Of a stretch of 64,000 nt of DNA, positions 47,695 through 52,709 are shown piece after piece. Each line of letters starts with the position of its first letter. Position 1 is the first letter of the stretch. The stretch lies in contig OY970280.1 in NCBI GenBank assembly GCA_963715865.1, positions 1,344,001 to 1,408,000 of the forward strand, read 5' to 3'. The notes under the pieces were generated by a model. The model searched no databases. It worked only from the letters and a program-made list of their open reading frames with translations, and was not told where the DNA came from. This DNA comes from Candidatus Bathyarchaeota archaeon (GTDB taxonomy: Archaea > Thermoproteota > Bathyarchaeia > Bathyarchaeales > Bathycorpusculaceae). A program made the translations under genes and the position numbers.

Positions 47695-47806
47695 GTTCTT
47701 ACTTGCGTGCGCAATTTTGTTTGAAGGCAAGGTCATTTTTAAGGGAAAAGTTTAAGGGTAAATGTTTGTTATGGTTTCGCGTATTCCTATTGTTGAGGGG
47801 TTATGG

Positions 47807-48358
47807 TTGAGCGCTAAAATAGAAACAATCGAAGAACGCAAAGCAGAAGTCTTAATCAAACTAAGAAAATACAAACTACTCGAAAAAGAAAAATATGAAG
47901 GCGCAATCGGCTACATCATCGACATCCCGCAAGACAAAGAAAAAGCACTCGTCTGGTGCATCTTAGGCGAAGCAACCGTCGGCATCGCAGCCATGAACAC
48001 GCTATACAAAGTAATGAAAGAAAAAGACATCGACAGAACCATCGTAGTCACCGAAGGACGCTACACCCACGCCGTCAAACTAGGCGCCAAAAAGAAAAAA
48101 GTCGAACTACTACCCAAGTCTTTCCCAGTTTTCGACATTTTCGAGCACGCACTAGTACCATTCCACGAAATCCTAAGCGAAAAAGAAAAGACCCAGCTTC
48201 TCGCCCAATACAAAGTTAAGCCCTACCAGATACCACAGATAAAATCAGGCGACCCAGCAGTGAAAGCCATCGGCGCAAAACCAGGCGACGTACTGAAAAT
48301 CACAAGGAAAAGCTCAACCGCAGGCGAACACATCACTTACAGGTACGTAGTAGAATAA
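47807..48358 (+). CDS. rpoH: RNA polymerase subunit RpoH/Rpo5 with RPB5-like N-terminal extension
   Basis: C-terminal [47 protein letters not shown], plus about 110 extra N-terminal residues; TTG 47807 after GAGGGG. Confidence 0.88.
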
Positions 48359-48362
48359 AAAA

Positions 48363-48920
48363 TTATTTAGCAATTATGATTTCCGTCGACTTCACGATTG
48401 CTTCTACTTCATCGCCAACTTTAATATCTAAATCTTCAACTGCTTCCTTAGTTATAACTGCCGTCACAGTTACAGGCATTTTTACCTCAACCTTAACTTT
48501 GGCTGTAATAACGCCTTTCTCGACAGCTATTACTTTTCCTTTAAAACGGTTCCTTGCACTTAACTTCAAACCTTTCACCTCCAAACTTCCTGAATCCGAT
48601 AAGACCTTGCTTAAGTAGCTCTCAACTTGCTTATACTCGCCAAGCAAGCTTCTGCCTAAATCAGTTAACTTTGCGCCTCCTCCACCAGATTTTCCACCTT
48701 TATAAGTTTCCACTATTGGCTCTTCCAGCGCCTTTCGAATATCCTGCAGGTAATTCCAAACGTAACGGTAGGACATTCCTAAGGTTTCTGCAGCTTTAGA
48801 AATCGAATTTTCCTTGTCGATGGCTTCCAGAATTTCGGCTCCGCCTTTGCCTATTACTGGTTTATTTTTGTATTCTATCCAGACTTTGCATGAGAGCTTA
48901 TGTTTTTTGTTGGTAAGCAT
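48363..48920 (-). CDS. modE: ModE-family regulator (HTH plus TOBE)
   Basis: SISKAAETLGMSYRYVW, GGKSGGGAKLT, TOBE SARNRFKGKV. Confidence 0.9.
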   Translation of the reverse strand: MLTNKKHKLSCKVWIEYKNKPVIGKGGAEILEAIDKENSISKAAETLGMSYRYVWNYLQDIRKALEEPIVETYKGGKSGGGGAKLTDLGRSLLGEYKQVESYLSKVLSDSGSLEVKGLKLSARNRFKGKVIAVEKGVITAKVKVEVKMPVTVTAVITKEAVEDLDIKVGDEVEAIVKSTEIIIAK

Positions 48921-48994
48921 TCTAGGATATGGTTATGTCGCAAAGACCATATAAAGCTAATCAAGATTAAATAAGCCAAATCGCATTCAGTTTA

Positions 48995-49402
48995 TTAAAG
49001 AGGAGTTCTTTTAATTTCTGCCACTTGATCGGCATCTTTGTCGTCGCTAATAATTGTTTTAATTTTTCTCTTGATCGCTGAAGCTATGTGTATGGAGTCA
49101 CGTGGACTAAGGTTATATTTGCTCATTAGCGCTTGAGCATGCCCTAAGATATTTTCGTCAACATTTATGAACTCCAAATTCGGGAAACCAAGCAGCTTTT
49201 GCCCCTGGTTTATGCCTTCGCTCTTACCCAATGTCTTGCTTACTACCCAAACGACTTCATCCCATGTTAATGTTGAAGTGCACCCTGACAGTTCTCCTTT
49301 TTCGATGCCAAGCAATATTTGTTTAGCTTTCTTTACCTTAGGTTCTACTTCCACTGTGTACAATATCGGATAAATGAAAACATTTGAATCAATGTATGGC
49401 AT
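48995..49402 (-). CDS. vapC: PIN-domain VapC toxin
   Basis: YIDSNVF, TWDEV, PRDSIHIASA, ISDDKD; start ATG 49402. Confidence 0.9.
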   Translation of the reverse strand: MPYIDSNVFIYPILYTVEVEPKVKKAKQILLGIEKGELSGCTSTLTWDEVVWVVSKTLGKSEGINQGQKLLGFPNLEFINVDENILGHAQALMSKYNLSPRDSIHIASAIKRKIKTIISDDKDADQVAEIKRTPL

Positions 49403-49640
49403 TTCTTTGTTCAACTTCTTCAGCTATTAACTTTTTAATGTTTATTCGCTGTTTTAGTTTGGCGGAAGAAGTAGTTATGAAGTATTCAGTGTAACTGCCT
49501 CTAACTTGTGGTTTTTTTATAACTATTTCTTGATCTCGCATTTCAAGGGTTACTTCGACGCCGGGCTTTAACCCCATAGCGTCCCTCATACGTTTAGGAA
49601 TTACAACTTGCCCTTTTGGCCCAACATTTTTTATAGGCAT
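49389..49640 (-). CDS. vapB: AbrB/MazE-family antitoxin
   Basis: VGPKGQVVIPKRMRDAMGLKPG. Confidence 0.9.
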   Translation of the reverse strand: MPIKNVGPKGQVVIPKRMRDAMGLKPGVEVTLEMRDQEIVIKKPQVRGSYTEYFITTSSAKLKQRINIKKLIAEEVEQRNAIH

Positions 49641-49752
49641 TGCTTTATTACCAATAATAATTAGTTATACCTTTTATTTATATTTTCCAACTATAAAGTT
49701 ATACTTTTCCAAGTTTCTAGATGCGGAGATCCGATGCAAGAGATTAATGTAA

Positions 49753-50469
49753 TTAAAACTCTAGTTCTCCGTTAACGAATTTGCGTGATATTTCACTTTT
49801 CGGATTCTCAAAGAAATTCTCCGTTTCAGCGACTTCCACTATTTCGCCGTTGTAGATGTGAACTATTTCATCTGCCATTCTTCTCGCCTGACTAAGATTA
49901 TGAGTAGCCATCACTATAATGCGCTCACCACTCTTTCTACTCACCATTGCCTTTTCAATAATACTTGCGCTGTTCGGATCCAAATTCGCTGTCGGCTCAT
50001 CCAAAAGCAAAACCTGCGAATCAAGCAAGAATGCTCTGGCTAAAGCGATTCTCTGCTGCTCGCCGCCTGAAGTCTTTTTTGCTCTTCGCTTCTCAAACCC
50101 TGAAAGCCTCACTGCCTGTAAAGCCTCATCGACTTTTTTTGCAATTTCCGCTTTTGGCACTCCCCTAATTCTGAGTCCATACGCCAAGTTATCGTAGACG
50201 TTGGTGCTGAACATTGCACTTTTCTGGAAAACCAATGTTGAAACTTGACGTAAAGCTTTACAATCAATATTTTGATTGTTAAATAACAGTTTTCCAGCGT
50301 CGGCGTTTTCTAAGCCAGCCATAATACGCATGAGTGTTGTTTTGCCTGCACCGTTAACGCCTAAAAGAACAATTATTTTGCCGCCTTGCATTTCTAGCGA
50401 TACTGAATTTAACGCTTTAACAGAACGGTAATTCTTTTTGATATCTACTAGTTGCAGATTAACGCTCAC
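49753..50469 (-). CDS. tupC: Tungstate ABC transporter ATPase
   Basis: GVNGAGKT, SGGEQQR, LLDEPT; follows the permease gene. Confidence 0.82.
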   Translation of the reverse strand: MSVNLQLVDIKKNYRSVKALNSVSLEMQGGKIIVLLGVNGAGKTTLMRIMAGLENADAGKLLFNNQNIDCKALRQVSTLVFQKSAMFSTNVYDNLAYGLRIRGVPKAEIAKKVDEALQAVRLSGFEKRRAKKTSGGEQQRIALARAFLLDSQVLLLDEPTANLDPNSASIIEKAMVSRKSGERIIVMATHNLSQARRMADEIVHIYNGEIVEVAETENFFENPKSEISRKFVNGELEF

Positions 50470-50473
50470 GGTT

Positions 50474-51220
50474 TTAACTCCCGCCTAAACCTCTCCAGAA
50501 CGACATTTTGTTCCATAACCCGTCTTCTTGCCTTACGCGCTCTATCAGGCTAATGGTTAATGCTAAAGCGATTACTATTGCCATAAGGATTATCGCATAT
50601 GCCATAGCGATGTCAAAGCTTCCGAAGTTTATTTCAAGAGCGATAGATGTGGTTAAAACTCGTGTTTCGCCTAATAGGTTTCCTCCTACGATTGTAGCAA
50701 TGCCGAGCTCCCCGAAACCTCTGTTAAAACCTGCCGTTACAGAAAGCACCATAGACGAAATTGTCTCGCGAATAAGGGTTAAATTAGTTCTAAAACCTGA
50801 AGCGCCAAGGGTTTTGGCTAAGTCTCTAAGTTGAGTGTCTGCTGCACCCAGAGCGTTTGCTGTAAAGCTGACTATTATTGGGGTAACCAGTATGGCTTGG
50901 CCGATTGCTATACCGTTAAGGGTGTAAAGCAGGTGGAAAGATCCGAATTCGCCTTGCCTAGATAAAAGCAAATACAAAATCAGTCCTAAGGCAACGGTTG
51001 GTACGCCTATTAACGCGTTAAAGAAGCCTTTGATAACCCATTTACCCCTAAAATTGTACAAGCCTAAAAATACAGCTATGGGGATACTCCACACGCATGC
51101 CAACAGTGTTCCTAAACCCGCAACGTATATTGTTCTGTAAACTGTTGCGTAAACTTCAGGATCACCGCTTGCGATTAGGTTAATTGCTTGCTGAAAGGCT
51201 TGAACGATAATATCAGCCAT
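50474..51220 (-). CDS. tupB: Tungstate ABC transporter permease
   Basis: GVPTVALGL, AIGQAILVTPI, ELGIATIVGGN, TRVLTTSIAL. Confidence 0.88.
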   Translation of the reverse strand: MADIIVQAFQQAINLIASGDPEVYATVYRTIYVAGLGTLLACVWSIPIAVFLGLYNFRGKWVIKGFFNALIGVPTVALGLILYLLLSRQGEFGSFHLLYTLNGIAIGQAILVTPIIVSFTANALGAADTQLRDLAKTLGASGFRTNLTLIRETISSMVLSVTAGFNRGFGELGIATIVGGNLLGETRVLTTSIALEINFGSFDIAMAYAIILMAIVIALALTISLIERVRQEDGLWNKMSFWRGLGGS

Positions 51221-51268
51221 GCATATCACAAAAGAAATAAGGGGAATTTTATTTGAGCTTTTCCTTAT

Positions 51269-52601
51269 TTATTCCCTGTTTAATTTAACACTGCTTTGAC
51301 TGTACGTTGATGGTTGTGCAAGCGTAAGTTGTTGGCTATCTGTCGAGTAATAGTTTAGATTGCTTATTGAAGCGTTAAGGTTCATGTTTGCCAATGCATC
51401 GTATGATGGCGAGTACAGGTTGCCTGCGTTGTATCGATATGCCGCTGGGCATTCACTTCCACTAGCATTAATTTGGATTAGTTGAGTTGATGTAAGCATA
51501 GTTTTGAACCCAATTGAGCAATGTGGCGTTGGGTGCAGTCTGACTAACTAGGGGTACAAAGGGACTGAACAATTGCTGTCCATAAGTTGACACCCCATAG
51601 TTTGCTATTAATTGTTGACCTTCATCAGAAACTAGCCAGTTCACAAAAGTCAATGCAGCGTTAAAGTTTATGCCGGTTAGGGCGGCGTTTTGCGGGTTGT
51701 CGATTATTGCGCTGTACACGTTTAGTAGGGCTTGTTGCGCTTGAATCTCAATTTTCAGTTGTATAGGTTGTATAGAGCTAGGATTAGAGTAGGCGAGGTA
51801 GGTGCCTGTGTCTGACAGGATGTATCCATTTAGTTGGTCAGCCACCTGTAGTGAAGCTCCCATGCCTAAACCTGTGGATTTGAACCATGTGGTATTGGTA
51901 ACAAGTTGAGTGTAGGTGTAGCCTGCAGCTTTCCATAGATTACTCTCTGCGGTGGCTGTGCCTGAACCATCATTTCTAGTGACCCATATGACTTGACTAT
52001 TGGTTTGTGCCGCATTGTAGATATTTATCAAGGCTTGGCTTACGTTAGTCATACCACTGATGCCTGCAGGGTCATTTGCAGGTCCAACGATGACAAAGAA
52101 GTTGTATGCTATGATTTTGCGGTCTACTCCATATCCGCCTGTCAAGAAAGAGACTTCCTGCGATGGGGAATGAACCAGTATCATGTCTGCATCGCCTCTC
52201 TGGGCGCTTTGTATTGCAGCGCCAGTTCCTTGTGCAACAAAGTTGACTGTTATCCATGGATATTTAGTTTGGAAGGCAGTTTTTATGTTGCCTGTTCCGT
52301 TGTCTTCGAGTCCTGTGTCGTGGAGGCTTGTGGTTGTTGCAACTGTCAGTGTTGTGGGGCTAGGAGTTGGGGTTGGTGACGGCGTAGGGGAAGGAGATGG
52401 GGTAGGGCTTGCAGTTGCGGTTGGAGAAGGAGATGGTGACGCTGAAGGGCTTGGAGATGGACTTGCAGTTGGAGTAGGCGTAGGTGTTGGCTGATTGTTT
52501 TGCTCTGTGTTTTGCACATAAATGTAAGCAGCGTAAGCGCCTATTCCAGATACAATTATGACTATTAAAAGAACTGTTATTATTTTTGTTACTGTATTCA
52601 T
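51269..52601 (-). CDS. tupA: Tungstate-binding protein with Pro/Thr linker; C-terminus split by a 1-nt frameshift near 51468-51490
   Basis: [40 protein letters not shown] TupA motifs. A +1 frame continues [17 protein letters not shown]. Confidence 0.85.
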
Positions 52602-52624
52602 TTTTTTCACTGTTTTTAGGGGAA

Positions 52625-52648
52625 CGTTATGCATATATAAGCATATCG
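52625..52648. promoter_or_regulatory. Candidate ModE operator overlapping the tupA TATA box
   Basis: CGTTAT-N12-ATATCG matches the ModE box geometry CGNTAT-N12-ATANCG; contains TTATATAT on the minus strand about 30 nt upstream of the ATG. Confidence 0.6.
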
Positions 52649-52709
52649 GCAACTAAGCGATTGAAACAACATACCCATTAACAAAAAAATAAGCATTAAC
52701 CGAGCAAAC

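Follow-up and report, generated by a model that had tools for sequence, protein, structure and literature searches.

The gene and its neighbourhood

We have analyzed a stretch of 64,000 nucleotides (the window) from a genome of the class Bathyarchaeia, in which a gene for a long version of the RNA polymerase subunit Rpo5 (RpoH) was found (Table 1). Downstream of it, over 48363-52652 (-), are a ModE-like regulator (HTH_1 + TOBE) convergent to rpoH and retained at 66 of the 100 related loci, a toxin-antitoxin pair of the PIN/MazE type, and an ABC transporter whose binding protein has a long linker rich in Pro, Thr and Ser.

Table 1. Features of the long rpoH gene, in positions of the window.
Feature	Position	Strand	Basis
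rpo5/rpoH, long form	47807..48358	+	183 codons from TTG plus stop; ORF list, Pfam, NCBIfam, orthologs
N-terminal domain, residues 1-105	47807..48121	+	Mrr_cat/NA-iREase1 match, PDB profile search, AF2, Foldseek
C-terminal Rpb5_C assembly domain, residues 109-183	48131..48355	+	PF01191, E 7.6e-30
GAGGGG, Shine-Dalgarno-like motif, 6 nt 5' of the TTG	47795..47800	+	Read from the sequence; putative function

In the list of open reading frames the frame extends over 47762-48358 (+). The TTG is taken as the start codon because it is the point where conservation begins across 21 orthologs (stop-to-stop frames, 20 related genomes), because in the G090 ortholog a stop codon is followed directly by the TTG that opens the frame, and because the frame of the G145 ortholog contains no upstream ATG. 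The start at 47807 and the length of 183 aa given in the initial annotation are supported by these orthologs. Its comparison with a typical archaeal Rpo5 of about 80 aa is also correct; the archaeal RpoH chains solved in the PDB have 77-84 aa, so that the approximately 105 extra residues at the N-terminus are real.

The two parts of the protein were recognized by different families. Residues 109-181 matched Rpb5_C (PF01191) over the whole model (positions 1-73 of 73), and the RpoH equivalog of NCBIfam also matched the C-terminal part (E 2.7e-31, 107 bits versus a cut-off of 83). This domain was 61-63% identical to the RpoH of Thermococcales, with an rmsd of 0.8 A in Foldseek. Residues 20-102 were matched in Pfam by NA-iREase1 (E 5e-7), the best match and a family of "inactive" restriction endonucleases, and by Mrr_cat (E 5.5e-6), for which the N-domains of long Rpo5 proteins scored 26.9-28.8 bits against a curated gathering cut-off of 21.

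Among 50 close relatives the N-domain had a dN/dS of 0.049 and the C-domain one of 0.053, in pairs that are not independent and have high dS. Metatranscriptome contigs from two studies, at identities of at least 98%, cover 47807-47976, 47841-48003, 47890-48037 and 48099-48249. These contigs are short and assembled, and they record presence in RNA libraries without transcript ends; they weakly suggest that the part coding for the N-domain is expressed.

A single Rpo5 away from rpoB

The source genome is one contig of 2.35 Mb with an estimated completeness of 97.9%. A six-frame search of it with PF01191 gave one match, the long rpoH, the next candidate being found inside a 289-aa frame with an E value of 0.086. 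The gene (genome positions 1391807-1392358 (+)) is 107 kb apart from rpoB (1499560-1502922 (-)) and on the opposite strand, outside the rpoH-rpoB-rpoA operon as the initial annotation had stated. On the 3' side of rpoB are an unsplit rpoA (1277 aa), a gene of the L7Ae family and a NusA-like KH gene, while no rpoH was found upstream of rpoB, where approximately 1 kb without a gene is followed by a DNA methylase. The place that rpoH has in short-form relatives (L004:12924-14871) is thus occupied by this 1 kb without any gene recognisable by Pfam and by the methylase, of the N6/N4 type. An unsplit rpoA of about 1260-1337 aa directly after rpoB is shared by the source genome (L004:5723-9556 (-)) and 38 other Bathyarchaeia (L175-L214).

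Since the genome has no second PF01191 gene, and the rpoB-rpoA operon is without rpoH, the long Rpo5 is the true, relocated RNA polymerase subunit of this archaeon and not a second paralog. The initial annotation had left both possibilities standing and had proposed to look for a short rpoH before rpoB; there is none there, and of the two possibilities the first one is upheld and the second is not. The several long copies carried by some other genomes (three in G075, two each in G026, G067 and G141) would fit an accessory Rpo5 giving an alternative polymerase beside the standard short RpoH. Nevertheless, we consider this extremely improbable, with a single PF01191 match in the source genome and with long and short forms found together in none of the 151 Bathyarchaeia genomes sampled. 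The multiple copies themselves (in G075 on contigs C39, C45 and C50) are each 37-51% identical to the query, and may be real paralogs or bin contamination, which is estimated at 1-4%.

Distribution of the long form in Bathyarchaeia

Among these 151 genomes, the long form was found in about 80 and the short form (approximately 85-100 aa) in 61. The long one covers the whole order to which the window belongs plus families f9, f12, f14-f16, f18, f27, f28 and part of f19. The gene context differs along with the form. The short rpoH is located directly upstream of rpoB in 56 of its 61 genomes, whereas the long one never adjoins rpoB; seven genomes have the two genes on one contig, at distances of 15-818 kb, and otherwise they are on separate contigs.

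In a rpoB tree (FastTree, 57 Bathyarchaeia and 4 outgroups), which is based on a single gene and has a weakly supported rooting, the short-form clades were basal. Two large clades have the long form, which is also seen in f28 and in some members of f19, within a clade that is otherwise mostly short; 3-4 changes are needed for this pattern. Given that the basal clades have the short, operon-linked gene, the long form seems to be derived within Bathyarchaeia, with a new locus for its gene. It is difficult to imagine how a long, unlinked gene would have become short and linked again, and for this reason we favour repeated replacement or transfer over repeated loss. The tree of 21 long forms agrees with the rpoB tree where it is resolved, and the forms of f28 and f19 are not placed in it. 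Family f19 holds both versions, long in G055 and G066 and short in G019 and G085, the short ones not being on the rpoB contig. The branch of its long form is very long, and a search of the protein collection gave 11 relatives of it, which share its architecture without exception.

When the genome collection was scanned with the full-length alignment, only Bathyarchaeia were recovered. A profile of the N-domain was also run over 401 genomes of the phylum, and in the approximately 340 that are outside the class it found only true nucleases and one paralog, the weak matches there being located in frames of 250-550 aa. Two hits of this profile, L173 (187-aa frame) and L174 (223-aa frame), turned out to be real Mrr nucleases with D..QxK, and a search for longer fused versions of the long RpoH gave one probable chimeric gene call (P0158). 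Two records labelled "Methanocella sp." and "Limnocylindrales bacterium" (L073 and L098) contain a long rpoH of the Bathyarchaeia type (87-89% identity). In the "Methanocella" MAG this is the sole RpoH, and both labels look wrong.

Fold and lost catalytic residues of the N-domain

The AF2 model of the full-length protein (pLDDT 87.5) was compared with solved structures by Foldseek and the first 33 ranks were filled by chains of the eukaryotic subunit RPB5. The best one, 8uhd_E, was aligned over both domains (E 4e-16, TM 0.80, 197 columns). A TM of 0.80 over 197 columns means that both domains and also their mutual placement in the model agree with RPB5. Folded alone (pLDDT 87.4), the N-domain is predicted to be a compact PD-(D/E)xK fold with the order alpha-beta-beta-beta-alpha-beta-alpha-beta. 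In this case the first Foldseek match was EndoMS/NucS (E 4e-5, rmsd 4.2 A over 109 columns), with RPB5 chains close behind (E 8e-5, rmsd 2.0 A over 75 columns) and MspJI among them. In the structural comparison with RPB5-N and with nucleases that the initial annotation had proposed, the full-length model favours RPB5 and the isolated domain ranks NucS first. On the evidence of these models, the fold alone cannot separate RPB5-N from nucleases, which is to be expected since RPB5-N is itself a recognised member of the PD-(D/E)xK superfamily (PMC3424549).

In an alignment with two genuine Mrr enzymes of this phylum, the protein in the window has G-A..Y and W-C-I at the places of their GD..D and QxK motifs. 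These positions vary across the family, and they are non-catalytic in all the long forms examined. Judging from these alignments, the N-domain is a catalytically dead nuclease fold. In most orthologs it is basic, with a mean net charge of +5.6 and a pI of 9.2.

An active nuclease or defence module that cuts nucleic acid and was merely captured next to rpoH might be suspected from the Mrr_cat score above the curated cut-off (26.9 versus 21 bits). However, the D and QxK positions of real Mrr enzymes correspond to non-catalytic residues in the long forms, the best Pfam match is to a family of inactive enzymes, and the domain, as a part of an essential subunit, was passed on through many families while purifying selection on it was strong. 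We regard the probability of such an activity as close to nil.

Sequence evidence for a relationship with the RPB5 jaw

For the comparison at sequence level, 21 full-length orthologs from 15 GTDB families were aligned, and their 21 N-domains were also aligned separately. The N-domain profile was searched against 177,635 PDB sequences, and the only significant matches were RPB5 N-domains, with E values from 7.3e-7 to 1.7e-4 (Drosophila 9mu7_E 7.3e-7, Arabidopsis 7eu0_E 1e-4, human 1.4e-4). Not a single nuclease appeared in this search at E < 10. Positions 34-93 of the profile pair with RPB5 59-117. With the full-length profile the best PDB match was Arabidopsis NRPB5 (E 1.8e-35), and positions 27-182 aligned unbroken to RPB5 47-205. 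The parallel between the extension and the RPB5 jaw, which the initial annotation had drawn, is recovered by HMMER, residues ~48-91 aligning with human RPB5 60-117. Helix 1 and the eukaryotic insert are outside every sequence alignment that we made.

The Pfam models gave a different picture. None of the 21 N-domains matched Rpb5_N (PF03871) at E <= 1, and all 21 matched Mrr_cat. The segment aligned above, RPB5 59-117, may fall for the most part outside the PF03871 model. The N-domain as a single sequence, searched against 1.84 billion representatives, gave 37 matches that were all members or fragments of the same family, with neither RPB5 nor nucleases among them. In the ESM Atlas, which compares language-model features, the nearest named clusters carry PF03871 with scores of 0.82-0.86, values that being below 0.9 are a lead only.

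In the profile comparison of RPB5-N with Mrr-like domains, the PDB search supports RPB5-N, while the Pfam matches are to Mrr_cat and NA-iREase1 and in no case to PF03871. Actually, "RPB5-N or Mrr-like nuclease", as the initial annotation had put it, is a false choice, because RPB5-N itself is a PD-(D/E)xK domain. Its central claim, a stand-alone RpoH with a jaw similar to that of RPB5, is borne out by the sole RpoH of the genome and by the match of the N-domain profile to RPB5-N.

A dead-Mrr paralog and possible origins of the long form

The same genome codes, outside the window, for a paralog of 183 aa (494895-495443; L165:2896-3444 (+)), with a domain related to the N-domain of RpoH (hhalign against the N-domain alignment, 98.8%, E 7e-17). 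It consists of a dead Mrr-like domain followed by a Cys-rich C-terminal domain that ends in SDNxSFHFExGW, and its gene sits between those of eIF-1A and L35Ae. The paralog is patchy in the class, being found in one of six genomes of the genus and also in some short-form genomes of family f25, and it occurs in another class as well (L166). A profile of this family matched nothing in the PDB, which indicates that the RPB5 match of the RpoH N-domain is specific and not generic to dead-Mrr domains. The paralog family is nevertheless a possible donor for a local fusion.

This bears on whether the similarity to RPB5 comes from one two-domain ancestor. A bathyarchaeal ancestor could have joined a local inactive Mrr-like domain to rpoH, and in that case the likeness to RPB5-N would just reflect that both belong to the Mrr branch of the PD-(D/E)xK superfamily. 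The matches to Mrr_cat and NA-iREase1 and not to PF03871, the presence of NucS and MspJI among the RPB5 chains in the fold search with the N-domain, the dead-Mrr family available in the same genomes, and a long form that is derived within the class and located at a new locus are all compatible with such a convergent origin. On the other hand, the N-domain profile selects RPB5-N from the whole PDB without a single nuclease, and the paralog profile selects nothing. RPB5 is collinear with the long form in domain order, linker and alignment, the two domains are predicted to be placed relative to each other as in RPB5, and the nearest named ESM Atlas clusters, as a lead, carry PF03871. Taking everything into account, we consider the convergent fusion rather unlikely.

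The explanation that we find best as a whole, and highly probable, is a sole Rpo5 made of an assembly domain and a dead jaw with the restriction-endonuclease fold that is homologous to RPB5-N. A further and tentative step, to which we give somewhat less than even credence, is that the two-domain design of RPB5 arose in archaea before eukaryotes. The compact form of Bathyarchaeia would then be a surviving or laterally passed version of it, and eukaryotes would have inherited the jaw.

Proposed role in the polymerase

In the arrangement that we propose, the C-terminal 75 residues would be an ordinary assembly domain binding the largest subunit. The first 105 form a compact domain with the restriction-endonuclease fold and without its catalytic residues, homologous to the jaw of RPB5. 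Cross-links connect the Rpb5 jaw, which has its place at the lower cleft end, with DNA some 15-20 nt in front of the bubble (PMC1802627). By homology, and by superposition of the full-length model, the N-domain probably has the same far, lower position in the DNA cleft, where its surface, basic for the most part, would touch the downstream DNA, serve as a site at which factors dock, or both. In Sulfolobus the absence of the jaw exposes a groove that is filled by Rpo13 (PMC2675907), and the N-domain may occupy the place that Rpo13 takes up in part in Sulfolobales and the Rpb5 jaw in Pol II.

We have compared Rpo1 from 19 long-form and 20 short-form genomes. No insertion or deletion in Rpo1 tracks the long form, so this comparison adds no second line of support for a docking site. 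At residue 90, in a motif of the clamp core, all 19 long-form genomes have HVEF or HIEF, and 18 of the 20 short-form genomes have HVGF, HVSF or similar (the E is found in the remaining two). Shared ancestry is the simplest and likely explanation of this correlation. As to its history, the long gene, away from rpoB, appears to have replaced the short operon-linked rpoH in approximately half of the sampled lineages of Bathyarchaeia.

Previous descriptions and significance

Archaeal Rpo5 has been described as lacking the jaw, and the Rpb5 jaw together with Rpb8 is given as a hallmark that distinguishes eukaryotic from archaeal polymerases (PMC1802627, PMC2675907, PMC3906176). This agrees with the statement of the initial annotation that most archaeal Rpo5 are without this domain. 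Its further statement that long forms had been noted in a few TACK lineages could not be traced; in the searchable literature we found no description of a long archaeal Rpo5, and a survey of the archaeal small subunits from 2026 does not mention it (PMC13257274).

In a large part of Bathyarchaeia, the long form should be annotated as the standard Rpo5 and not as a fusion with a "restriction endonuclease". Of the two eukaryotic hallmarks, Rpb8 is by now known from archaea as well. With a conserved jaw in archaea the second one would fall too, and the role of the jaw would become testable in a simpler enzyme. Close natural lineages with and without it provide a ready comparison for the handling of downstream DNA, open-complex formation and factor docking. 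If the reading of an archaeal origin is true, the separate locus and the replacement of the operon copy record the spread of an alternative subunit among archaeal lineages.

Comparison with known systems

The closest parallel in architecture is eukaryotic RPB5/RPABC1 (shared by Pol I, II and III and plant Pol IV/V; PDB 1dzf, 8uhd_E, 7eu0_E, 9mu7_E), which has the same order, a dead PD-(D/E)xK jaw and then Rpb5_C. However, the jaw of Bathyarchaeia is compact, with approximately 105 aa versus 130-142 aa in eukaryotes, and the approximately 30 residues that eukaryotes have inserted between helix 1 and the sheet are missing from it. The C-domain is also of the archaeal type, closer to Thermococcales RpoH (identities given above) than the overall 25-36% to RPB5.

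The standard archaeal Rpo5/RpoH (77-84 aa; 4qiw_H, 8cro_H, 7ok0_H) is matched by the C-terminal 75 residues of the long form (E 1e-24, rmsd 0.8-1.2 A). Like the standard one, the long form has no second copy in its genome, and because of this it has the same role. It differs by the additional 105 residues at the N-terminus and by a gene that is monocistronic and 107 kb away from rpoB.

The RPB5 of giant viruses (Nucleocytoviricota; ASFV 8q3b_E) shares the two-domain layout. Its chains were at Foldseek ranks 16 and 19, aligned over both domains, and by language-model features it is in the nearest ESM Atlas clusters, with scores below 0.9 that are to be read as leads. The identity to the long Rpo5 is just 18-19%.

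The restriction endonucleases of Mrr_cat (PF04471) and the inactive domains of NA-iREase1 (PF22722) have the fold and the Pfam clan in common with the N-domain, which matches them above the curated cut-off. In contrast to the Mrr_cat nucleases, it lacks the D...(E/Q)xK residues and is fused to a polymerase subunit, and its profile recovered no nuclease from the PDB.

Finally, Rpo13 of Sulfolobales is found in the groove between Rpo5 and the clamp head of Rpo1, which in eukaryotes is partly filled by the Rpb5 jaw (PMC2675907), and the N-domain is probably located at the same place. Rpo13, however, is a subunit on its own, a helix-turn-helix protein that is unrelated to the jaw of Bathyarchaeia.
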